In this document: positions 4,335 to 28,048 of the stretch, in pieces | Position numbering within the stretch: position 1 is the first letter of the stretch | How the letters are laid out: the number at the start of each line of letters is the position of its first letter | Origin: a virus | Lineage: Duplodnaviria; Heunggongvirae; Uroviricota; Caudoviricetes | Strand: one strand, 5' to 3' | IMG/VR virus record: IMGVR_UViG_2684622554_000001 | DNA: 36,569 bases | Made by a program: the position numbers and the translations under genes | Notes under the pieces: model-generated | What the model saw: the letters and a program-made list of their open reading frames with translations, nothing else | Databases searched by the model: none | Told to the model about the DNA's origin: nothing

Positions 4335-6600
4335 AGCCTCCGGGCGTTTTGTCCCTCCGTCAGCATTTGCTGCAGGCACCGGTAAGGCGTTTACCGGTGC
4401 TTATGCATGGAACGCGCCACGCGAGGCTGTCGGGCGCGAAAGACCCCTTACACGTGACGAGATGCGTCAGGTGCAAGGTGTTTTATCCACGATTAACCGC
4501 CTGCCTTACTTTTTGCGCTCGCTGTTTACGTCACGCTATGACTACATCCGGCGCAATAAAAGCCCGGTGCACGGGTTTTATTTCCTCACATCCACTTTTC
4601 AGCGTCGTTTATGGCCGCGCATTGAGCGTGTGAATCAGCGCCATGAAATGAACACCGACGCGTCGATGCTGTTTCTGGCTGAGCGTGACCACTATGCGCG
4701 CCTGCCGGGAATGAATGACAAGGAGCTGAAAAAGTTTGCCGCCCGTATCTCATCGCAGCTTTTCATAATGTATGAGGAACTCTGCGATGCCTGGGTGGAT
4801 GCGCATGGCGAGAAAGAATCGCTGTTTACGGATGAGGCGCAGGCTCACCTGTATGGTCATGTTGCTGGCGCTGCACGTGCTTTCAATATTTCCCCGCTCT
4901 ACTGGAAAAAATACCGTAAAGGGCAGATGACCACGAGGCAGGCATATTCTGCCATTGCCCGTCTGTTTAACGATGAGTGGTGGACTCATCAGCTTAAAGG
5001 CCAGCGTATGCGCTGGCATGAGGCGTTACTGATTGCTGTCGGGGAGGTCAATAAAGACCGTTCTCCTTATGCCAGTAAACATGCCATTCGTGATGTGCGT
5101 GCGCGCCGCCAGGCAAATCTGGAATTTCTTAAATCGTGTGACCTTGAAAACAAGGAAACCGGCGAGCGTATCGACCTTATCAGTAAGGTGATGGGCAGTA
5201 TTTCTAATCCAGAAATTCGCCGGATGGAGCTGATGAACACCATCGCCGGTATTGAGCGTTACGCTGCCGCAGAGGGTGATGTGGGGATGTTTATCACGCT
5301 GACCGCGCCGTCAAAGTATCACCCGACACGTCAGGTCAGAAAAGGCGAAAGTAAAACCGTCCAGCTAAATCACGGCTGGAACGATGAGGCATTTAATCCA
5401 AAGGATGCGCAGCGTTATCTCTGCCATATCTGGAGCCTGATGCGCACGGCATTCAAGGATAATGATTTACAGGTCTACGGTTTGCGTGTCGTCGAGCCAC
5501 ACCACGACGGAACGCCGCACTGGCATATGATGCTTTTTTGTAATCCACGCCAGCGTAACCAGATTATCGAAATCATGCGTCGCTATGCGCTCAAAGAGGA
5601 TGGCGACGAAAGAGGAGCCGCGCGAAACCGTTTTCAGGCAAAACACCTTAACCGGGGCGGTGCTGCGGGATATATCGCGAAATACATCTCAAAAAACATC
5701 GACGGCTATGCACTGGATGGTCAGCTCGATAACGATACCGGCAGACCTCTGAAAGATACTGCCGCGGCTGTTACTGCATGGGCGTCAACGTGGCGCATCC
5801 CGCAATTTAAAACGGTTGGTCTGCCGACAATGGGGGCTTACCGTGAACTACGCAAATTGCCGCGCGGCGTCAGCATTGCTGATGAGTTTGACGAGCGCGT
5901 CGAGGCTGCACGCGCCGCCGCAGACAGTGGTGATTTTGCGTTGTATATCAGCGCGCAGGGTGGGGCAAATGTTCCGCGCGATTGCCAGACTGTCAGGGTC
6001 GCCCGTAGTCCGTCGGATGAAGTTAACGAGTACGAGGAAGAAGTCGAGAGAGTGGTCGGCATTTACGCGCCGCATCTCGGCGCGCGTCATATTCATATCA
6101 CCAGAACGACGGACTGGCGCATTGTTCCGAAAGTGCCGGTCGTTGAGCCTTTGACTTTAAAAAGCGGCATCGCCGCGCCTCGGAGTCCTGTCAATAACTG
6201 TGGAAAGCTCACCGGTGGTGATACTTCGTTACCGGCTCCCACACCTTCTGAGCACGCCGCAGCAGTGCTTAATCTGGTTGATGACGGTGTTATCGAATGG
6301 AATGAGCCGGAGGTCGTGAAGGCGCTCAGGGGCGCATTAAAACACGGGCTGGGAACGCCAAATCGTCAGCAAAGAAACGGAAGCCCGTTAAAACCGCATG
6401 AAATTGCACCATCGGCCAGACTGACCCGGCCGGAACGATTGCAAATCACCCGTATCCGCGTTGACCTTGCTCAGAACGGTATCAGGCCGCAGCGATGGGA
6501 GCTTGAGGCGCTGGCGCGTGGGGCAACCGTAAATTATGACGGGAAAAAATTCACGTATCCGGTTGCTGATGAGTGGCCGGGGTTCTCGTTACCCATTTGA
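4324..6600 (+). CDS. A: Replication initiation endonuclease gpA (rolling-circle HUH nickase)
   Basis: 758 aa from the ATG at 4324 (the track start at 4282 is a TTG). Contains the HUH-type motif HWHMMLF. Size close to P2 A as recalled. Confidence 0.95.
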   Translation: MAVKASGRFVPPSAFAAGTGKAFTGAYAWNAPREAVGRERPLTRDEMRQVQGVLSTINRLPYFLRSLFTSRYDYIRRNKSPVHGFYFLTSTFQRRLWPRIERVNQRHEMNTDASMLFLAERDHYARLPGMNDKELKKFAARISSQLFIMYEELCDAWVDAHGEKESLFTDEAQAHLYGHVAGAARAFNISPLYWKKYRKGQMTTRQAYSAIARLFNDEWWTHQLKGQRMRWHEALLIAVGEVNKDRSPYASKHAIRDVRARRQANLEFLKSCDLENKETGERIDLISKVMGSISNPEIRRMELMNTIAGIERYAAAEGDVGMFITLTAPSKYHPTRQVRKGESKTVQLNHGWNDEAFNPKDAQRYLCHIWSLMRTAFKDNDLQVYGLRVVEPHHDGTPHWHMMLFCNPRQRNQIIEIMRRYALKEDGDERGAARNRFQAKHLNRGGAAGYIAKYISKNIDGYALDGQLDNDTGRPLKDTAAAVTAWASTWRIPQFKTVGLPTMGAYRELRKLPRGVSIADEFDERVEAARAAADSGDFALYISAQGGANVPRDCQTVRVARSPSDEVNEYEEEVERVVGIYAPHLGARHIHITRTTDWRIVPKVPVVEPLTLKSGIAAPRSPVNNCGKLTGGDTSLPAPTPSEHAAAVLNLVDDGVIEWNEPEVVKALRGALKHGLGTPNRQQRNGSPLKPHEIAPSARLTRPERLQITRIRVDLAQNGIRPQRWELEALARGATVNYDGKKFTYPVADEWPGFSLPI

Positions 6601-6860
6601 GTAAAAACACAACGTGATTTGATATGGCATTGAATGGCTTATGCGGAGCAGTTATGGGGCAGCAGAAGGTCAATAGCATGCTGAATTAGAAGGCTAAATG
6701 CTATTGAGTGACTAGCATGTCGGTAAGGACGGCCGTTTGATCCGGGTCATAAAAGGCCATCCATTTAGTCTAATAAAATCATTGCGGGTAACCTTATGTC
6801 GACGCATAATTCATCTTGAGCGAAGTCTTGTCAGTCTTTCATCGTATTGATGATGGGCGC

Positions 6861-6893
6861 AAAAAAACCACCCTGGCAGGTGGTTTTTTTGTT
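6861..6893. terminator. Bidirectional rho-independent terminator
   Basis: AAAAAAACCACC-CTGGCA-GGTGGTTTTTTT: perfect 6-bp GC stem flanked by an A-run and a T-run. Sits after A (+) and after the small ORF (-). Confidence 0.7.
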
Positions 6894-6902
6894 TGAAGCA
6901 TA

Positions 6903-7016
6903 TTAAAGCATAATGCTGACATTGATATTACTGACGTTTACTGACAAACCACTCGGACTACCGTTTGGATAGCCAAAGAGGGCCAGAACGAGCATGCAGT
7001 AATAGCATTTCTTCAT
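6903..7016 (-). CDS. Putative 37-aa small hydrophobic protein (MKKCYYCMLVLALFGYPNGSPSGLSVNVSNINVSIML)
   Basis: ATG at 7016..7014 preceded by AGGAGG with a 4-nt spacer. Followed by the 6861..6893 terminator. Only strongly signalled ORF in the tin/old slot. No recognisable family. Confidence 0.3.
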   Translation of the reverse strand: MKKCYYCMLVLALFGYPNGSPSGLSVNVSNINVSIML

Positions 7017-7494
7017 ATTGCCTCCTGTAAGTAGAGGGCAACTTCCACCGGTATATGCGCTTCTTAGGTGGAATGACTTTTGAGCGAAGTCTTGCCCTGA
7101 AATAATGCTCTGTTTAAACGCAAAGTGATTTGGCATATCACCGAACAGAGAGCCGGAAAAACACAACATATAGTATGTCGTTGTTTCTAGACATACATTC
7201 TATGTTGTGTAACAAGGGCTTTGCATTAAACATGTTTGAGATTTTATTGATGTAGCTCAAAGTAAAAAACAGAGACTACGGTTGATAAGGTCTTGAAAGC
7301 AATGTAAATTTTTTAAAGTTGCCAATTGCTTAAAAATGTACAGTTGCGGTATGGCGTACTTAAAAAGCTATGCATGCAACAAGTGAATGTTTTTGCATGC
7401 GTTGGGGATGTCCGTTCAGGCTGCGTGCGGTCAGGACTGGTGCGGATCCATAGTATCTATGCAACTGCATTAAAACCGCCCCGTGAAGCGGGCG

Positions 7495-7513
7495 GGCGAG
7501 GCGGGGAAAGCAC
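7495..7513. other. cos site (19-nt P2/P4-type cohesive end GGCGAGGCGGGGAAAGCAC)
   Basis: Exact match to the P2/P4 cohesive-end sequence as recalled. Embedded in a GC-rich palindromic context. Confidence 0.8.
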
Positions 7514-7657
7514 TGCGCGCAGCCCGTCAAGAATAAAAAACTCTCTTGCAGGTAGAAAACATTCTGTTAACATTTGTCTGGATGAAGTTTAAGTTAGAAA
7601 TTTATGTTAATGAACTGATTGATACTTATGTTTTGTCAATAATTTAGGAATGTTAAG

Positions 7658-8794
7658 ATGACAAGCTATGTTACATGGGCAAATAAAGGTGGAATAGGTA
7701 AATCAACATTATCTTTCCAATTGGCGTTAAAATACGCGAGATTAAACACGAATAAAAAAGTAATCATAATAGATATGAGCCCTCAGTGTGATGTCTCTAG
7801 AATGTTATTGGGGGGAGGGCATTTTAACGGTGAGCAAAAGATCTTGGATAGAATGACCTCTAATCCAAGGTTGACAATTTACCGGTATCTTGAGGCCTGT
7901 GTTAATGATGTTCCTTCTGGGAGGGGATGGCCTGATTCATTATCATACTTAATTGAACCTAATTCTTTTCGAGACGAAAACGCAGAAAAATTGCCTGATA
8001 ATATTAGTATGGTCTGTGGAGATTTCGACTTAGAGAGGGTTACTCATAGTTTAGATAATTTGCCACAACCTCAACCAAGAGGCGGGCGTGTTCCGTCGGG
8101 TGCTCATTACTCAGCATATTTATTGCCACGCACTTTTCTACGGAAAATGGTGGAGGACTTTGAGCGCGAATACAGGGATGTGACAATTTTTATTGATACA
8201 GATCCATATTATTCGGTAGTAACAACACATCTGGGGCTTCTGGCTGCAGACAGGTTGATTTCGGCATACTCTCCTTCATCTCAAGCAAGCCAGTATGCAG
8301 TATATCGTAGCTTAGAGTTTCTATACGATCCTAATTATGGACTGGTGCAAGAGGTTAATACACAGAGAGCAATATATGGTACCCCTTGGTTTGATAGTTT
8401 AAATAATATAATTACAACACCGAATATATCTGTTGCAAATCTTTATATGGTAGTAAGTAACATGAATACGCCTCAGGCTGGAAGAGGACAACCTCCATAC
8501 AGCCAACCCCAAAAACTACATAGACAATCGCAACAAGAAGTTATATCTAGAATTAATGACACATTAAGTAGTTTGGGGATCGCGCATGATTATGTTCATG
8601 ACTATTTATGGGATCTCAAGAGATTAGGTTTGATTTGTGATTATAATGGTTTTGATTTAGCAACAATTCAATTAGGGGAAAATTATGCGGAACCAAGTGA
8701 TGATGGTAATTATTATGTAAATACTACAGGTGGAACACCGATCCAATTATCATCCTATAATGCTAGGATCGAAACTGTTACATCAAAACTATAA
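7658..8794 (+). CDS. Cargo A: ParA/MinD-type P-loop ATPase with about 180-aa C-terminal extension of unknown function
   Basis: 378 aa. Deviant Walker A (K10-GGIGKST17), A' motif VIIIDMSPQ, Walker B-like TIFIDTDP. AT-rich relative to the phage backbone. Own terminator. No adjacent parB-like or centromere partner. Confidence 0.85.
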   Translation: MTSYVTWANKGGIGKSTLSFQLALKYARLNTNKKVIIIDMSPQCDVSRMLLGGGHFNGEQKILDRMTSNPRLTIYRYLEACVNDVPSGRGWPDSLSYLIEPNSFRDENAEKLPDNISMVCGDFDLERVTHSLDNLPQPQPRGGRVPSGAHYSAYLLPRTFLRKMVEDFEREYRDVTIFIDTDPYYSVVTTHLGLLAADRLISAYSPSSQASQYAVYRSLEFLYDPNYGLVQEVNTQRAIYGTPWFDSLNNIITTPNISVANLYMVVSNMNTPQAGRGQPPYSQPQKLHRQSQQEVISRINDTLSSLGIAHDYVHDYLWDLKRLGLICDYNGFDLATIQLGENYAEPSDDGNYYVNTTGGTPIQLSSYNARIETVTSKL

Positions 8795-8801
8795 GAACTA
8801 G

Positions 8802-8822
8802 GGGAGCAAATGCTCCCTTTCT
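8802..8822. terminator. Rho-independent terminator between cargo A and Q (convergent)
   Basis: GGGAGC-AAAT-GCTCCC hairpin followed by TTTCT. Confidence 0.5.
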
Positions 8823-8866
8823 ATATATGGGTTATTAATTACCCGCTTATATAAATATTGAAGAAA

Positions 8867-9886
8867 CTATAGGGTGTATTGTCTGAATTTTATTACATTC
8901 TGACCGAGCCAGCCGTTTATTTCCCGAATCCTGTCCTGTAACGGGATAAGCTCATTGCGGACAAAGACCTTTGCCACTTTCTCAATATCACCCAGCGACC
9001 CGACGTTCTCCGGCTTGCCACCCATCAACTGAAAGGGGATGCGGTGTGCGTCCAGCAGGTCAGCGGCGCTGGCTTTTTTGATATTAAAAAAATCATCCTT
9101 CGTTGCCACTTCACTGAGCGGGATAATTTTAATGCCGTCGGCTTTCCCTTGTGGGGCATAGAGAAACAGGTTTTTAAAGTTGTTGCGGCCTTTCGACTTC
9201 ACCATGTTTTCGCGGAGCATTTCGATATCGTTGCGATCCTGCACGGCATCGGTGACGTACATGATGTATCCGGCATGTGCGCCGTTTTCGTAATACTTGC
9301 GGCGGAACAGCGTGGCCGACTCATTCAGCCAGGCAGAATTAAGGGCGCTCAGATATTCCGGCAGGCCGTACAGCTCCTGATTGATATCCGGCTCCAGCAG
9401 GTGAAACACGGAGCCGGGCGTGAAGGCTGTCGGCTCGTTGAAGGACGGCACCCACCAGTAAACATCCTCCTCCACGCCACGGCGGGTATATTTTGCCGGT
9501 GAGGTTTCCAGTCTGATGACCTTACCGGTGGTGCTGTAACGCTTTTCCAGAAACGCATTACCGAACACCAGAAAATCCAGCACAAAGCGGCTGAAATCCT
9601 GCTGGGAAAGCCACGGATGCGGGATAAATGTCGAGGCCAGAATATTGCGTTTGACGTAAATCGGTGAGCTGTGATGCACGGCAGCACGCAGGCTTTTTGC
9701 CAGACCGGTAAAGCTGACCGGTGGCTCATACCATCTGCCGTTACTGATGCACTCGACGTAATCCAGAATGTCACGGCGGTCGAGTACCGGCACCGGCTCA
9801 CCAAAGGTGAATGCCTCCATTTTCGGGGCGCTGGCGGTCATTTTTTTTGCCGCAGGTTGCGGTGTTTTCCCTTTTTTCTTGCTCAT
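8867..9886 (-). CDS. Q: Portal protein gpQ
   Basis: 339 aa with a basic N-terminus MSKKKGKTPQPAAKK. Position next to cos and P. The start codon ATG (9886..9884) lies inside the IS target duplication, and the native SD is now on the far side of the IS. Confidence 0.9.
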   Translation of the reverse strand: MSKKKGKTPQPAAKKMTASAPKMEAFTFGEPVPVLDRRDILDYVECISNGRWYEPPVSFTGLAKSLRAAVHHSSPIYVKRNILASTFIPHPWLSQQDFSRFVLDFLVFGNAFLEKRYSTTGKVIRLETSPAKYTRRGVEEDVYWWVPSFNEPTAFTPGSVFHLLEPDINQELYGLPEYLSALNSAWLNESATLFRRKYYENGAHAGYIMYVTDAVQDRNDIEMLRENMVKSKGRNNFKNLFLYAPQGKADGIKIIPLSEVATKDDFFNIKKASAADLLDAHRIPFQLMGGKPENVGSLGDIEKVAKVFVRNELIPLQDRIREINGWLGQNVIKFRQYTL

Positions 9887-10079
9887 TGCGTATTTTCATG
9901 AAAGGAGATCACTCAATAACTTCCATCGAGATCGGGTAATAACATTTGAACAGATCGCTGAATAACATCGATGGAGATCACTTTTGACTCATTTTGTTAT
10001 TCAGTGATCTCCATCAATGTTATTGGAACTTCACAGGTGTGTTGATCTGTATCTTTTGCCATTCCGGTAAAGGATACCT

Positions 10080-11621
10080 ATGCCAACAGTTCCAATTTCT
10101 ATGAGAAAACTTAAAGAAATTCTTAGGCTTAAATACGGTGTTGGACTCAGCCATCGACAAATTGGTCGTAGTCTTGCAATCTCCCCTTCCGTTGTATCCA
10201 GATATGCTAATCGGGCGGCTCAACTTGGCATAAAGCAGTGGCCCTTACCTACAGGATGGGATGATACAAAACTAAAACATGCGTTCCTTCAGACCCAGGT
10301 TAAGATGAAGAAGCACTCTCTGCCTGACTGGGCTACAGTACACCGGGAACTGCGTAATAAATGCGTGACGCTGCAGCTACTCTGGGAAGAATACTGTGAG
10401 CGTAATCCAGGCGGTTTTTACAGCTATAACCATTACTGCCGGATGTACCGTGAATGGCTCAAAACCACTTCACCATCAATGCGTCAGGTACATAAAGCTG
10501 GCGAAAAACTTTTCGTTGATTACTGTGGACCTACCGTTGGCGTTACCGACCCTGAGACCGGAGAAATAAGAACTGCTCAGGTCATCGTAGCTGTTCTCGG
10601 GGCATCAAGTTACACATGGGCAGAGGCCACCTGGTCTCAGCAGCTTGAAGACTGGGTGATGAGTCATGTTCGCTGCTTCCAGTGGTTGGGTGGCGTTCCT
10701 GAACTTGTTGTTCCGGACAATCTGAAAAGCGCCACATCCAGGGCATGTAAGTATGATCCTGACGTTAACCCTACCTACCAGCAGATGCTTGAGCATTATA
10801 ATGTCGCAGTTTTGCCTGCGCGGCCACGTAAACCGAAAGATAAAGCCAAAGCTGAAGTTGGCGTTCAGGTTGTTGAACGCTGGATCATGGCCCGAATCAG
10901 GCATGAGATCTTCTACAGCCTTGCATCGCTTAATCAGCGCATTCGGGAGTTGCTGGAAAGACTGAATAACAAAATAATGCAGAAGTTGGGTTATTCACGT
11001 GCAGAACTCTTCATCCAGCTTGATAAACCCGCACTGAAGCCTCTTCCTGAAGCCAGTTACAGTTACACCCTGGTGAAGAAAGTCAGAGTTCATGCCGATT
11101 ACCACGTGGAAATCGACAAACATTACTACTCGGTTCCATGTTCGCTGTTAGGCCAGCAACTGGAAGCATGGATCTCCGGAGAACTGGTAAGACTCTTCAA
11201 TCAGGGGCAGGAGGTTGCTGTGCACCCGCGCAAGCGTACTTATGGCTACAGTACCCGCAACGAGCACATGCCTGAAGCTCATCGACAGCATGCCACCTGG
11301 ACGCCAGAGCGTCTTCTGGAATGGGCGGGGCACATAGGCAGTGAAACTCATAGTTATGTGCTTCATATACTGAACTCTCGTCCACATCCGGAACAAAGCT
11401 ATCGCTTCTGCCTTGGACTCCTGAACCTTCATAAAAAATACAGTAAAGCCAGACTTAATGCAGCATGTGCAAGAGCTCTGAAAACAAAGGTATGGCGTCT
11501 GTCAGGTATTAAATCGATCCTGGAAAAAGGTCTGGATAAACAACCTGTTCAGGATCCAAAACCAGATCTGTTATCCACGATGGAACACGAAAACGTACGC
11601 GGCAGTGAGTATTACCACTGA
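10080..11621 (+). CDS. istA: IS21-family transposase IstA
   Basis: 513 aa. N-terminal HTH region and a DDE-type integrase core. Immediately followed by istB. Confidence 0.9.
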   Translation: MPTVPISMRKLKEILRLKYGVGLSHRQIGRSLAISPSVVSRYANRAAQLGIKQWPLPTGWDDTKLKHAFLQTQVKMKKHSLPDWATVHRELRNKCVTLQLLWEEYCERNPGGFYSYNHYCRMYREWLKTTSPSMRQVHKAGEKLFVDYCGPTVGVTDPETGEIRTAQVIVAVLGASSYTWAEATWSQQLEDWVMSHVRCFQWLGGVPELVVPDNLKSATSRACKYDPDVNPTYQQMLEHYNVAVLPARPRKPKDKAKAEVGVQVVERWIMARIRHEIFYSLASLNQRIRELLERLNNKIMQKLGYSRAELFIQLDKPALKPLPEASYSYTLVKKVRVHADYHVEIDKHYYSVPCSLLGQQLEAWISGELVRLFNQGQEVAVHPRKRTYGYSTRNEHMPEAHRQHATWTPERLLEWAGHIGSETHSYVLHILNSRPHPEQSYRFCLGLLNLHKKYSKARLNAACARALKTKVWRLSGIKSILEKGLDKQPVQDPKPDLLSTMEHENVRGSEYYH

Positions 11622-11632
11622 TACGGGATCCA

Positions 11633-12382
11633 ATGATGAATCATCTTTACGAACAACTGACCGCACTTAAACTCACCGGCTTCCGTGATGCGCTTAAAAA
11701 GCAACTTGCTCAACCGGGCACATACCAGGAGCTGGGCTTCGAAGAACGCCTGTCATTACTGACAGCAGAAGAACTAACCTGCCGTGAAAACAGGAAGGCA
11801 GAGCGTCTGATCAAACATGCACGGTTCAGACTTAATGCTGAGTTATCAAAGCTGGATTATCGTAACAATAGAGGGCTGGACAGGGCCCTCATCCGTTCAC
11901 TCAGTCAGGGAAACTGGTTAACCCTGAAACAAAATATTTTACTGACCGGGGCCACCGGCAGCGGTAAAACGTTCCTGGCATGTGCACTTGGTCATAATGC
12001 CTGCCGACAGGGATACAAGGTCTACTATTATCGCCTTAAAGCGCTGATGGAACAGTGCTATCAGGGGCATGCTGATGGAAGATACAGCAAACTTTTGACC
12101 AGGCTGAATAATAGCGATCTGCTGCTTCTGGATGACTGGGGGCTGGAACCTCTCTCATCAGAACAGCGTAGCGACCTGCTGGAAATAGTGGATCTGATGT
12201 ACCAACGAGGCTCAATCATCGTAGTGAGCCAGTTGCCGGTGGAAAACTGGTACAAAATGATCGGAGACTCCACACATGCGGATGCCATCCTAGATCGACT
12301 GGTTCATGGCAGTATCAAGATCGAACTTAAAGGAGAATCAATGCGGAAAATACAATCTCCGTTGACCGAAGGAGATCAGTGA
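11633..12382 (+). CDS. istB: IS21-family ATP-binding helper IstB
   Basis: 249 aa. Walker A GATGSGKTF and Walker B LLLLDDWG, AAA+/DnaC-like. Confidence 0.9.
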   Translation: MMNHLYEQLTALKLTGFRDALKKQLAQPGTYQELGFEERLSLLTAEELTCRENRKAERLIKHARFRLNAELSKLDYRNNRGLDRALIRSLSQGNWLTLKQNILLTGATGSGKTFLACALGHNACRQGYKVYYYRLKALMEQCYQGHADGRYSKLLTRLNNSDLLLLDDWGLEPLSSEQRSDLLEIVDLMYQRGSIIVVSQLPVENWYKMIGDSTHADAILDRLVHGSIKIELKGESMRKIQSPLTEGDQ

Positions 12383-12471
12383 AGGTAATTTAAAAACGGT
12401 TCTGTGAAAGTGACACGAACCGATCTCCATCGATGTTACTCACCGATCTCCTTCACGGTAATACGCACTCA

Positions 12472-14244
12472 TCAGTAAAACTCCAGAATGGTGGATGTCA
12501 GCGGGGTGCTTATACCGGCGGTGAGTGGCTCATTTAACAGGGCGTGCATGGTCGCCCAGGCGAGGTCGGCGTGGCTGGCTTCCTCGCTGCGGCTGGCCTC
12601 ATAGGTGGCACTGCGTCCGCTGCTGGTCATGGTCTTGCGGATAGCCATAAACGAGCTGGTGATGTCGGTGGCGCTGACGTCATATTCCAGACAGCCACGG
12701 CGGATAACGTCTTTTGCCTTGAGCACCATTGCGGTTTTCATTTCCGGCGTGTAGCGGATATCGCGCGCGGCGGGATAGAACGAGCGCACGAGCTGGAACA
12801 CGCCGACACCGAGGCCGGTGGCATCAATACCGATGTATTCGACGTTATATTTTTCGGTGAGTTTGCGGATGGATTCAGCCTGAGTGGCAAAGTCCATGCC
12901 TTTCCACTGGTGACGCTCAAGTATTCTGAATTTGCCACCGGCCACCACCGGCGGTGCCAGCACCACGCATCCGGCGCTGTCGCCACGGTGTGACGGGTCG
13001 TAACCAATCCATACCGGGCGGGAACCGAACGGATTGGCGGCAAAGGGTGCATAGTCTTCCCATTCTTCCAGCGTGTCGACCATGCAGCGTTGCAGCTCCT
13101 CGAACGGGAACACCGACGCCTTGTCGTCAACAAATTCACACATGAACAGGTTTTTAAAATCGTCGGCGCTGTTTTCGCGTTTGAGCTGTTCAATGTCGAA
13201 CAGCGTGCAGCCACCTTTCAGGGCGTCCTCAATGGTGACAATCTGCCGCCACTGGCCGTCTGCACAGAGAAGCCCACCGGCAAGGGCGTTATGACTGACG
13301 TCGATTTCCACGCGTTCGGCGGCGCTGGCGCGTCCCCGGTTGAACAGTTCACCCGACCAGAACGGGTAGGCGTCGTGCGCCAGCGTGGACGGGGTGGAGA
13401 AATAGGTCGAGCGCAGGTGACTCTGTGAGGCCATACCTGATGCCACCTTACGCAGTACCTGAAAATTCGGGATCCAGAAAATCTCATCGACGTACAGGTC
13501 GCCGTTATGGCTCTGCGCGGTGTTGGAGTTGGTGCCGAGAAAAATCAGTTTTGCGCCGTTATTGCCCAGGACAATCGGGTCACCGGTCAGGTCAACGTCA
13601 ACCAGCCGGGCAAAGGCGATGATGTATTCGCGGAACACATACGCCTGCGTTTTACTGGCCGACAGAAAAATCTGGTTATGACCGGTTTTCAGGGCGCGCA
13701 GCAGCGCCTCGCGGGAAAAATAAAACGTCGCGCCAATCTGGCGGGATTTCAGGATATCGCGGATGCGGTGCTCAAGCCCGGCGCGATACCAGTGCAACTG
13801 ATACTCGAAAGACTGCTCAAAGAAAATCTGCTCCAGCTTTTCGATGGCCTCGTCACTGAAAAAATTCTTTTTCGGTTTGCGACGCCCGCCTTTGTTGCGG
13901 TTAGCGACGTTCGGATTAAGGTCTGCCTCGTTGCCGGTCTGACTGTAACGGTTGACCCGTGCCAGTCGTTCAATCTGGCGTCCGAGCAGGTCAATTTCCT
14001 TGAAGTCACCGCCGGTTTTCTGCGGTTTGATGATGAGCTGGGTCAGCCGCGCTTCCAGACTCATTTCGACACGGCTGATGGGGGCAACGCTGTCCCAGCC
14101 GTCGCGCTGTTTCCAGCTCTGCACCGTCGGGCGTTTCATCTGCAACATGGCGGCAATCTGCGGCACGGAAAACCCCTGCCAGTACAGCAGCGCCGCCTGA
14201 CGACGCGGGTCGTGTAAAAGAGTGGTGTCTGTGGTGATGGTCAT
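12472..14244 (-). CDS. P: Terminase large subunit gpP
   Basis: 590 aa from the ATG at 14244 with a GAGG SD (the track start at 14274 is a TTG). Length equals P2 gpP. Stop TGA at 12474..12472 overlaps the right-hand IS target duplication. Confidence 0.95.
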   Translation of the reverse strand: MTITTDTTLLHDPRRQAALLYWQGFSVPQIAAMLQMKRPTVQSWKQRDGWDSVAPISRVEMSLEARLTQLIIKPQKTGGDFKEIDLLGRQIERLARVNRYSQTGNEADLNPNVANRNKGGRRKPKKNFFSDEAIEKLEQIFFEQSFEYQLHWYRAGLEHRIRDILKSRQIGATFYFSREALLRALKTGHNQIFLSASKTQAYVFREYIIAFARLVDVDLTGDPIVLGNNGAKLIFLGTNSNTAQSHNGDLYVDEIFWIPNFQVLRKVASGMASQSHLRSTYFSTPSTLAHDAYPFWSGELFNRGRASAAERVEIDVSHNALAGGLLCADGQWRQIVTIEDALKGGCTLFDIEQLKRENSADDFKNLFMCEFVDDKASVFPFEELQRCMVDTLEEWEDYAPFAANPFGSRPVWIGYDPSHRGDSAGCVVLAPPVVAGGKFRILERHQWKGMDFATQAESIRKLTEKYNVEYIGIDATGLGVGVFQLVRSFYPAARDIRYTPEMKTAMVLKAKDVIRRGCLEYDVSATDITSSFMAIRKTMTSSGRSATYEASRSEEASHADLAWATMHALLNEPLTAGISTPLTSTILEFY

Positions 14245-14417
14245 GAATACCTCGCCGTGATGAATACACGGCAAGGCTACTGAGTCGCGCCCCGCGATTC
14301 GCTAAGGTGCTGTTGTGTCAGTGATAAGCCATCCGGGACTGATGGCGGAGGATGCGCATCGTCGGGAAACTGATGCCGACATGTGACTCCTCTAATCACT
14401 ATTCAGGACTCCTGACA

Positions 14418-20821: not shown

Positions 20822-21565
20822 TTATCTGGTTAAATAAGTGAGCTCACTCTCTTTAGGTATTAGCTGAGTGTCTCCTCCCCATTCGTTCATGATGTTTTTT
20901 CTCGCATTCCAGTATTCTTGGTAAGTATCTTGATGAACAGTGTAGATACTTGCTAAAAGCCAGTGTTGATACTTAAGAGTCGTGTATTGGTATTCTTCTA
21001 TTATCGGTAAAATGAATAAGTTTTTTTGCTTTAGTGAGATTAAATATTCTTTTGTTTGTTTGGTGGTTCTGTCATTGTTTAAGATTCTTTCAATCTTAAA
21101 TGAAAAGCCGTGCATGTTTATATTTCTTTGGAGGTGCATGAATGATGATATTGATGGGGCGATCATGTTTTGATGCGTCAGGATGTTTCTTAAATCCTCC
21201 ATTAATTTTATTACTGGATTATTTCGGAATTCATGATTGATGAATGCCTCTGATTTGATTTTAATGTCGGCAATATTTAATGCTTTTGTTTTAAGTAGGT
21301 TGCGCGTTGAATCTCTAAATGATAATGCTGAAGATATATAATTGAAAAGGTGTCTTGATATGTTTAAATGTTCTTTTTTAAATTTGTCTCTGTTAAATGA
21401 ATGACGGGAAACAATGTCAGGGGAGTTGAATTTGCTTAATTCATGTTGGACAACTTCGTAATTGGCAATATGCATATGTCCAAGTAAATTGGTGTCGGAG
21501 ATTTTTAAATACTCTTGGTGGGCGATGGTGTCTTTTTGATTTTCCCAGATTTGATATTTATCCAT
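20822..21565 (-). CDS. Cargo B: AT-rich hypothetical protein with two Rx4H motifs (possible HEPN-type or abortive-infection-like)
   Basis: 247 aa on the strand opposite the tail operon. Strongly AT-rich. Own SD (AAGGA). R126-x4-H131 and R147-x4-H152. Confidence 0.8.
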   Translation of the reverse strand: MDKYQIWENQKDTIAHQEYLKISDTNLLGHMHIANYEVVQHELSKFNSPDIVSRHSFNRDKFKKEHLNISRHLFNYISSALSFRDSTRNLLKTKALNIADIKIKSEAFINHEFRNNPVIKLMEDLRNILTHQNMIAPSISSFMHLQRNINMHGFSFKIERILNNDRTTKQTKEYLISLKQKNLFILPIIEEYQYTTLKYQHWLLASIYTVHQDTYQEYWNARKNIMNEWGGDTQLIPKESELTYLTR

Positions 21566-26821: not shown

Positions 26822-28048
26822 ATGTTACAGTTCAGCTTTGTATCAAATGACGTTGTTATGACTTACGACGGTGACAGCGGAGAACAAATAATTTGGGTTT
26901 GGGAGAGTTTAAATAAATTTCAAACAGTATGCATTTCACGAATTTTTAACTTTCAACTCCAGGATTTGAGAAACCCACCGTCAACCGTTCAGGATTTTAA
27001 TGATTACGAATATTCCTTTAATTTTGGCACGCTTAATAATGAATACATAACAGTTCCGGGACGGATTCTAAGCATTAATCGAGATGTCCTTATACATAAG
27101 TCCATCAAGCTTGAAAGGAAAGTATTTGCGTCAGAACGCAACGTCTCCATTTTTGGTCGGCTTTCAAAACTACTCGAACACACTAATCCCATCATCATCG
27201 GAGGAGATAAGCCGGAAGCTATACCAAAAAGCGTATTCCAGGAGTTGCAAAGTAAATTCCCCAACACAGGGGAACTGGATCGCTATGCTAATGCAAGGGT
27301 TCACGCTATTCTCGCAGGTTATCTTGATGGTATGAAAGATGCTCGCGAACGGTATGAACATTACCTAAACAGAAAAACAGTGATCAGAAAAACCGACAAA
27401 CTGGATTTAGAAGTTTTAAATAAGCTCGAAATTGAGAAATATACACTCATAAGAGACATTATCCAGGATGCGTTGAATAACAAAACTAACTTGTCTGAAG
27501 ATGACTGGCAGAGCCTGATGATACCCTTCATCACATTACTTTTTCCAAAATATATCAAGGTCCTCGAGAAGGTTAAAATTTTCGACTATTACTCTAATCC
27601 TTCGGCTAAAACAAATCGGTTTATAGACATTGCACTGGTGGATGCAAACGGCAACCTTGATATCATCGAAGTCAAAAAGCCGTTTGATGATAAGATCCTT
27701 CGCAAGACGCCCTATCGCGATAACTATATTCCTACATCAGAACTTAGCGGCGGTATTATGCAGGCTGAAAAGTATATTTTTCATTTATCTAAATGGGGTG
27801 TTAAGGGTGAAAAAGAGCTTACGAATGCCTACAAGAATTCTCTGCCAGCGGGAATGTGTATTCGTATATCTAACCCAAAAGCCATCATCATTGTCGGGCG
27901 CGATCAGATAGCGAACGGTAACATGACCGACGGTCAGTTGCTTGATTTTGAGATAATCAAACGTAAGTACGCCAACATGATAGACATATTGACGTACGAC
28001 GACCTGTTGCGTCGACTTAATAATACGATTGAAGCATTGAAAGGTTGA
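26822..28048 (+). CDS. Cargo C (Z/fun slot): protein with C-terminal PD-(D/E)xK nuclease signature, possibly Shedu/DUF4263-like
   Basis: 408 aa, AT-rich. RFID269IALVD...DIIE283VK285 with Q314 downstream. Own SD (GAGGAAAT). Located between G and FI. Confidence 0.85.
   Translation: MLQFSFVSNDVVMTYDGDSGEQIIWVWESLNKFQTVCISRIFNFQLQDLRNPPSTVQDFNDYEYSFNFGTLNNEYITVPGRILSINRDVLIHKSIKLERKVFASERNVSIFGRLSKLLEHTNPIIIGGDKPEAIPKSVFQELQSKFPNTGELDRYANARVHAILAGYLDGMKDARERYEHYLNRKTVIRKTDKLDLEVLNKLEIEKYTLIRDIIQDALNNKTNLSEDDWQSLMIPFITLLFPKYIKVLEKVKIFDYYSNPSAKTNRFIDIALVDANGNLDIIEVKKPFDDKILRKTPYRDNYIPTSELSGGIMQAEKYIFHLSKWGVKGEKELTNAYKNSLPAGMCIRISNPKAIIIVGRDQIANGNMTDGQLLDFEIIKRKYANMIDILTYDDLLRRLNNTIEALKG

Follow-up and report, generated by a model that had tools for sequence, protein, structure and literature searches.

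A lone ParA/MinD-fold ATPase gene in the cos-Q slot of a P2-like prophage, mobile cargo and a candidate anti-phage gene distantly related to gipd474

What is a lone gene for a ParA/MinD-type ATPase doing between the cohesive-end site (cos) and the portal gene of a P2-like prophage? The question arises from a 36,569-nucleotide stretch of DNA (IMG/VR record IMGVR_UViG_2684622554_000001), hereafter called the window, which has a P2-like prophage layout, in which the left part holds int, C, cox, B, and A and the right part holds Q, P, O, N, and the tail genes. An earlier inspection of the letters alone (the sequence-only reading) had singled out the gene as cargo of a P2 variable slot and as a candidate for a defense system yet to be described. 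Our analysis establishes that the product is a complete P-loop ATPase of the ParA/MinD fold, with all nucleotide-switch residues conserved and no partner gene, and that the gene travels singly among unrelated mobile-element slots. By analogy with the Salmonella protein GiPD474, we consider the gene to be self-contained mobile cargo whose product probably guards the lysogen against other phages. Defense is thus still the best-supported function, because of the homology to GiPD474, the location in a published defense hotspot, and the occurrence as lone-gene cargo in independent contexts.

The locus has the following features, with positions given in the window.

7466..7520, + strand: P2 cos core of 55 bp (29 bp, the 19-nucleotide [nt] cohesive end, and 7 bp), left border of the cargo segment
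7495..7513: P2 cos 19-mer, GGCGAGGCGGGGAAAGCAC, an exact match to the P2 cohesive end
7521..8891, + strand: AT-rich cargo segment of 1371 bp (guanine-plus-cytosine [GC] content, 37-41%); P2 similarity is lost after 7520 and is back at 8892
7521..7657, + strand: leader upstream of the ATPase gene, in which AGGA (7644..7647) precedes the ATG by 10 nt
7658..8794, + strand: open reading frame (ORF) with an ATG start for the 378-amino-acid (aa) lone ParA/MinD-fold ATPase (family F1); key residues Lys10 (signature), Lys15 (Walker A), Asp39, and Asp180/Asp182 (Walker B)
8802..8817, no strand given: GC-rich hairpin (GGGAGC-ATTT-GCTCCC), with the ATPase gene and Q converging on it from either side; scored on the - strand
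8867..9886, - strand: ORF of portal gene Q, the right neighbor, annotated as portal in Escherichia coli NC22; its 3' end (8867..8891) lies inside the replaced segment

The cos core is 100% identical to circularized P2 (33546-33593 plus 20-26). To its right, 200 bp of P2 (27..226) are swapped for the 1371-bp segment, with loss of the tQ terminator and the final Q codons, and the P2 alignment picks up at window position 8892, which is P2 position 227, within the 3' end of Q. The GC content of the ATPase gene is 38%, versus 51% in the remaining window, in keeping with the AT-rich gene that the sequence-only reading had placed between cos and the portal gene. That reading had put the spacing between cos and Q in P2 at about 0.3 kb; we measured 167 bp from cos (1-19) to the Q stop codon (187). 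The Shine-Dalgarno sequence and terminator that it had assigned to the gene are borne out by the AGGA of the leader and by the hairpin, which continues on the + strand with TTTCTATAT and appears to be a terminator-like site serving the ATPase gene, Q, or both. Similarity to the leader begins at 7632 in the Pantoea copies from P4-like elements (L088, L089) and at the ATG, 7658, in the Klebsiella copies (L071-L073).

The N terminus of the protein, MTSYVTW, agrees with all homologues. The three motifs picked out from the letters are all there and vary little or not at all among family members: NKGGIGKST (residues 9-17), IIIDMSPQ (36-43), and IFIDTDP (177-183). Conservation is at least 90% at K10, G11, G12, G14, K15, S16, and T17, so that the deviant Walker A motif and its signature lysine are present, and D39 (Walker A'), D180, and D182 (Walker B) are invariant. 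The protein matched Pfam AAA_31 (E value, 4e-10; residues 8-206) and CbiA, as well as PHROG 164, "ParA-like partition protein" (5e-18). No NCBIfam model came near its cutoff: ParA_partition (NF041546) scored 26 bits versus a cutoff of 180, TIGR03453 scored 10.7 versus 348, and TIGR01968 (MinD) scored 12.9 versus 212.9.

An AlphaFold2 model built with 32 homologues had a mean predicted local distance difference test score (pLDDT) of 92, a predicted template modeling score of 0.91, and no segment below 50. Over residues 2 to 376, its strands and helices follow one another as they do in ParA, the C-terminal helix (359-376; pLDDT, 92-96) is modeled as part of the single fold, and Foldseek alignments with ParA proteins of about 250 aa extend over about 376 columns. 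The confidence of the single-fold model and the length of these alignments therefore argue for one predicted ParA fold with about 125 residues of insertions rather than an ATPase with an extra domain. Accordingly, the separate uncharacterized domain that had been proposed for the last 180 or so residues gives way to the second half of the ParA fold with conserved insertions. The enrichment of this part in N, Y, Q, and S is real (33% versus 20%), and it is partly compositional, since the share falls to 24 to 26% in homologues from GC-rich hosts. A BFVD structure search gave a single match with an E value of <0.001, and matches in a Protein Data Bank sequence search were confined to the first 50 to 80 residues. 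In comparison with canonical ParA/Soj/McdA proteins (PDB 8ray, 6noo, and 2bek), the window protein carries its additional residues as conserved insertions, and sequence similarity is confined to the first ∼50 residues; its gene lacks a ParB or McdB partner and a centromere, and its family was not found on plasmids. DIP2308 of Corynebacterium diphtheriae (PDB 3pg5), an uncharacterized ParA-like protein of 361 aa, matches at residues 4-52 only.

The sequence-only reading knew of no single-gene defense built on a ParA fold. One has since been described: gipd474 (STM474_RS13505) is a single gene within the immunity region of Salmonella prophage Gifsy-1 and encodes a ParA/MinD/Soj-like ATPase with an "unknown domain" (Bosma, Noireaux and Bowden, Applied and Environmental Microbiology, Nov 2025, PMC12724215). 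Expressed alone, GiPD474 lowered T4 by 5 logs and Alf5 by 5.5 logs and restricted Felix O1, whereas T7, SP6, S16, and others were not restricted (PMC12724215). We recovered the gene from IMG/VR by means of the published knockout-primer arms (L084:5723..6808); the deduced protein has 361 aa and carries GGVGKT at residues 29-34, in agreement with the paper (PMC12724215). The window protein and GiPD474 share 26% identity over 306 residues in BLASTP (E value, 5e-24), and hhalign aligned them from N terminus to C terminus over 332 columns (probability, 99.7%; E value, 1e-25). Both are prophage-borne, stand-alone, long ParA-like ATPases without a partner gene, and they have in common several features foreign to canonical ParA, namely, WxNKGGxGK[ST], PQx[DN]xSxMxGGG, GDx[DN]LE, IDT[DN]P, and a C-terminal leucine. 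The relatives of GiPD474 are also cargo genes that stand alone, as in Pseudomonas phage phi297, where the CI repressor is the neighbor, and on ColE1-like plasmids of 3 to 10 kb. A literature search for ParA-like anti-phage proteins, which did not take in the Vibrio parahaemolyticus integron defense paper, yielded GiPD474 only.

The relationship is a distant one. The GiPD474 family was defined by at least 70% identity and at least 70% coverage (PMC12724215), which leaves the window protein outside it. An exhaustive HMMER search of 1.84 billion representatives recovered the window family as one full-length cluster at 50% identity, with 618 bits; the next matches, at 132 bits, mark the drop that separates it from the GiPD474 family. 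What sets the window family apart from GiPD474 are additional conserved insertions, four conserved cysteines (Cys44, Cys81, Cys120, and Cys327), and its locations, namely, the P2 cos-Q slot, the P4 hotspot, and an integron, as opposed to the Gifsy immunity region. By sequence comparison, then, it is a sister family of GiPD474, a distant full-length homologue. The distant relatives of about 350 aa that a genome scan brought up, from cyanobacteria, Bacteroidota, Methanosarcina, Pseudomonas, Vibrio, and Legionella, are relatives of GiPD474, with which they share 29 to 37% identity along its full length or the greater part of it.

As judged from these scores, the 378-aa family is compact and sharply delimited. 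A search of 5.8 billion proteins returned 96 clusters, nearly all of 377 to 378 aa, which align end to end at 43 to 87% identity. The hosts are Escherichia, Serratia, Enterobacter, Pantoea, Klebsiella, Morganella, Cronobacter, Aeromonas, Vibrio, Grimontia, Pseudomonas, and Burkholderia, together with one alphaproteobacterium and two myxobacteria. Seventy-five columns are invariant, including K10 and K15 (the signature and P-loop lysines), D39, and DTDP at 180-183. Conservation extends beyond the canonical ParA core to DxSPQCDVSRMxLGGG, CGDFDLER, AYSPSSQASQ, WDxxRLGLICDYNG, the loop PQPxxRGGRxPxG, and the four cysteines; conservation is lowest in the helix at 291-310.

The second support for an anti-phage function is the slot. 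The interval between gpA and gpQ is, as a whole, a defense hotspot in P2-like phages, and the published list of its cargo (Table S5) includes WP_074400489 (Rousset et al. 2022, PMC9122126), to which the window protein is identical at 377 of 378 positions. The window gene belongs to this hotspot, being placed between gpA and gpQ beside cos and being variable among prophages. The system can therefore no longer be called undescribed without qualification: the slot is published as part of a hotspot, the protein is catalogued there, and a homologous ParA-fold single-gene defense has been described. What is new, to judge by sequence, is a family distinct from that of GiPD474 and absent from PADLOC. 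No ParA, AAA_31, or CbiA entry appears in the table of tested systems (Table S2; Rousset et al. 2022, PMC9122126). The old, tin, and Rousset et al. 2022 systems (PMC9122126) share the niche of the window gene and are unrelated proteins; the A side of cos is the site of old and tin, and the Q side is that of the window gene. Another ParA-like ATPase of the P2 hotspot ("ParA/AAA_31 | RelA_SpoT", entry 110 of Rousset Table S5B) is paired with a RelA/SpoT-like gene, whereas the window gene is partnerless. We also counted in favor of defense that the same prophage holds a full-length Shedu gene (26822..28048, + strand; 38-41% GC; SduA in PADLOC, 1e-219; Pfam SduA_C, 3e-33) in its Z/fun slot, between the tail-fiber assembly and sheath genes.

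Of 5426 complete E. coli genomes, only those of NC22 and MB06172 had the cargo segment; it was in the same slot and at 99.6% identity, and had no match among 50,697 phage records; in NC22, a near-identical prophage adjoins cpxP. We then surveyed the slot in the 5426 genomes with a 429-nt query made of the P2 cos core, the spacer, and the 3' end of Q. Among the 2153 genomes that matched, 1538 (about 71%) had the short, uninterrupted P2 arrangement, so an empty Q side of cos is the usual state. The remainder mostly matched the 55-bp cos core alone (query positions 1-54 to 1-56, the same stretch as the core in the window), as expected of P4-like satellites; matches to the Q part alone, of the NC22 type, made up a thin slice of the ranking for this query only. 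NC22 and the window have a common Q-side cargo and different A sides, that of NC22 holding an ImmA/IrrE gene and a hypothetical gene, both absent from the window, so that the two sides vary independently. The P2 hotspot is thus made of two independent sub-slots around the cos core, and cargo directly adjoins the core on either side. The A-side sub-slot of the window (6601..7465) is almost empty. It contains a strong bidirectional hairpin (6860..6891), an 88-aa ORF (6903..7169, - strand) without a family match, and, flanking this ORF, two exact copies of a 15-nt direct repeat, TTGAGCGAAGTCTTG, at 6816 and 7080.

A gene directly beside the P2 cos core might instead serve the phage itself, as an anti-defense or other phage-benefit gene in P2 or P4 lytic growth, for example, as an aid to packaging. 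A P4-like satellite of Serratia fits this idea, since a cos-like site, GGCGTGGCGGGGATAGCAT (L094:4639-4657), with 3 mismatches to P2 cos, lies ∼340 bp upstream of its homologue in the same relative orientation as in the window. Among the satellite copies, a cos-like site was found in Serratia only. This arrangement hints that the P2 and P4 cos-adjacent hotspots exchange the ATPase gene. Nevertheless, the family also resides in integron cassettes, non-P2 prophages, and islands that lack cos, and the proportion of short cos-Q junctions in our survey means that the gene is dispensable, which together make a phage-benefit role very unlikely.

The third support for an anti-phage function comes from the contexts of the homologues. 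The P2 cos-Q slot carries the ATPase gene in three E. coli strains, in which the cargo across cos differs. Copies from Pantoea, Morganella, Serratia, and Klebsiella occupy the hotspot of P4-like satellites, between delta/psu and the integrase. Prophage copies were found in Pseudomonas syringae (in the early region, between methyltransferases) and in Corallococcus, and a Grimontia copy stands at the end of a phage-like element. Small integrase/resolvase islands hold the copies of Pseudomonas aeruginosa (by ligA), Burkholderia pseudomallei (by AbiEi/AbiEii), and Cronobacter. In the chromosomal integron of V. parahaemolyticus, the gene forms a 1372-bp single-gene cassette between two attC-like repeats, in an array of 17 repeat copies, and faces the other way from its fellow cassettes. 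Klebsiella excepted, it is a lone gene in all contexts examined, set apart by its own orientation or by wide gaps, and no neighbor recurs across 15 contexts. The GC content of the gene lies 6 to 16 points under that of its flanks in 10 of 12 hosts (10 to 16 points in nine); at the Vibrio and deltaproteobacterial loci it is ∼1 point apart. A tblastn search of 72,556 plasmids found no family member, and all matches were below 38% identity. Lone-gene contexts, lower GC content, and absence from plasmids therefore indicate a self-sufficient, single-gene accessory function that has spread horizontally.

The Klebsiella copy lies 28 bp downstream, on the same strand, of a gene absent from the other loci. 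Its 477-aa product (L071:6540-7973) matches the PADLOC candidate PDC-M36A (1.5e-46), has the precomputed Pfam label DUF8370, and contains a PD-(D/E)xK-like motif near its C terminus. We rejected a two-gene system with the upstream neighbor, given that this DUF8370 gene is found in Klebsiella only and that the ImmA/IrrE pair of NC22 lies across cos. In Pseudomonas, Burkholderia, and Cronobacter (L002, L008, and L074), the ATPase gene has a small serine recombinase (183-191 aa, Resolvase/HTH_7) no more than ∼1.7 kb away, and such recombinases are also found near two GiPD474-like genes (L020 and L029). A functional module with the resolvase was likewise rejected, because resolvase identities do not follow ATPase identities between genera.

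The main rival explanation is that the protein is an orphan maintenance or positioning ATPase, which would promote the inheritance or placement of an excised or replicating P2, P4, or island by using DNA as its matrix and a partner encoded elsewhere. The ParA fold itself speaks for it, as does the fact that about a quarter of P2-like phages have a putative partition system (StbA plus Plasmid_stab_B, of the ParM/ParR type) in the hotspot (Rousset et al., PMC9122126), and the serine recombinases near the gene in three genera are reminiscent of stability modules. However, as had been read from the letters, the gene has neither a ParB partner nor a centromere: its neighbors are cos and Q, the window contains no ParB ORF, and 6600..8900 holds no centromere-like repeat array, just short two-copy matches. 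The low ParA_partition score and the incongruence of resolvase and ATPase identities also count against it, and so do the integron cassette and the early regions of integrated prophages, where partition would lack an object. The absence of the family from plasmids, which also led us to reject a plasmid ParA origin, completes the case. Contexts, GC content, and plasmid data thus argue, at the level of sequence, against partition of the plasmid type, and we hold a maintenance role to be unlikely.

One of the plasmid matches was inspected, the 5-kb plasmid pSUH-5 (L092, 5057 bp), which has a lone 352-aa ParA-family gene and no ParB. ParA-family genes with a match to the window protein (∼35% identity, residues 1-201) are also present on more than 100 further plasmids of 3 to 10 kb from E. 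coli, Klebsiella, and Salmonella, mobilizable or not. A need for active partition is not expected in plasmids of this size. Close homologues that are ordinary plasmid ParA proteins beside parB/parS, which the sequence-only reading had named as fatal to its proposal, were thus not found, and neither that outcome nor the others it had named (no phenotype on expression, or a family already described under a defense-system name) was encountered in full.

Besides anti-phage immunity, the protein might act in competition or host modulation, for example, as a Soj- or FleN-like regulator of a host process or by disturbing ParABS in competing plasmids or phage-plasmids. Its home on competing mobile elements would suit a conflict between such elements. 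However, the sole tested relative shows an anti-phage phenotype, and no additional DNA-binding or regulatory domain was seen in the model and fold searches. We regard this role as quite unlikely.

Could the gene instead be a decaying remnant without function? The window prophage is itself probably packaging-defective, since an IS21-family insertion element (9887..12471; istA, 10080..11621; istB, 11633..12382) splits the P-Q operon exactly between the Q start (9886) and the stop codon of terminase gene P (12472..14274, - strand); in the NC22 relative, P and Q abut. Against this idea, the ATPase ORF is intact and has 377 of 378 residues identical to those of copies in prophages free of the insertion. 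Furthermore, its length and an identity of ∼50% have been kept across several classes of Pseudomonadota and in Myxococcota, along with the invariant columns. Because of this conservation in the family we exclude a dead gene, and a remnant is hardly credible.

Several points weigh against an anti-phage function. Activity was seen in only about a third of the hotspot systems that were cloned, and the hotspot also carries cargo other than defense, such as partition systems and toxins (Rousset et al., PMC9122126). Anti-phage activity of the 378-aa family would follow by analogy with GiPD474 (PMC12724215), to which the identity is only 26%. PADLOC-DB 2.0.0 gave no significant match to the window protein (best, PDC-M28B; E value, 0.064); GiPD474 itself has no PADLOC hit either. 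No nuclease, membrane, or NADase effector domain is recognizable in the window protein, and its DNA binding, dimerization, and ATPase activity are predicted from the fold only. Lastly, the promoter of its own that the sequence-only reading had granted the gene did not materialize, as a promoter scan at the tool threshold found no sigma-70 consensus match in 7514..7657.

How might such a protein stop a phage? The deviant Walker A motif KGGxGK[ST] marks proteins that dimerize as an ATP sandwich, the signature lysine of one subunit contacting the ATP of the other. In ParA/MinD proteins, it is the dimer, not the monomer, that binds a surface (DNA, membrane, or a partner protein); hydrolysis and release are set by a trigger protein, and hydrolysis resets the switch. 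In the 378-aa family, the conserved insertions (SGxGWP, the flexible PQPxxRGGRxPxG loop, PWFD, YSxPQxLH, and WDxxRLGLICDYNG) may build a surface that recognizes a phage component or DNA, and the ATP-locked dimer may directly disturb the replication, positioning, or packaging of phage DNA. In its most specific form, this proposal would make the family an immune module of one protein, whose ParA ATP switch serves as sensor and as effector. A ParB-like or DNA-handling protein of the phage, or the incoming DNA, would lock or mislocalize the ATP dimer on DNA and so stop replication or packaging without a nuclease, membrane, or NADase domain. Any specific mechanism has much lower support than the anti-phage function itself, and this one is offered tentatively, as doubtful in its details. 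No system, not even GiPD474, is known to have a mechanistic description of defense by an ATP switch that is sensor and effector at once.

Elsewhere in the prophage, what we take to be the P2 orf30 slot (between S-like and V-like tail genes) holds an AT-rich ORF for 247 aa on the opposite strand (20822..21565, - strand; 32-40% GC). This ORF had no match in Pfam or PADLOC and is another moron candidate.

If the window family does protect lysogens, it would place a second, clearly distinct family beside the only known single-gene defense with a ParA fold and would suggest that "long" stand-alone ParA-like ATPases are a broad defense class, with relatives in Pseudomonadota, Myxococcota, cyanobacteria, Bacteroidota, and Methanosarcina and on phages, satellites, integrons, and small plasmids. 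As an effector domain is recognizable in neither family, their mechanism could reveal a new way of blocking phages by a nucleotide switch. Many genes of mobile elements that are now annotated as "ParA family protein" would then have been misassigned to partition.

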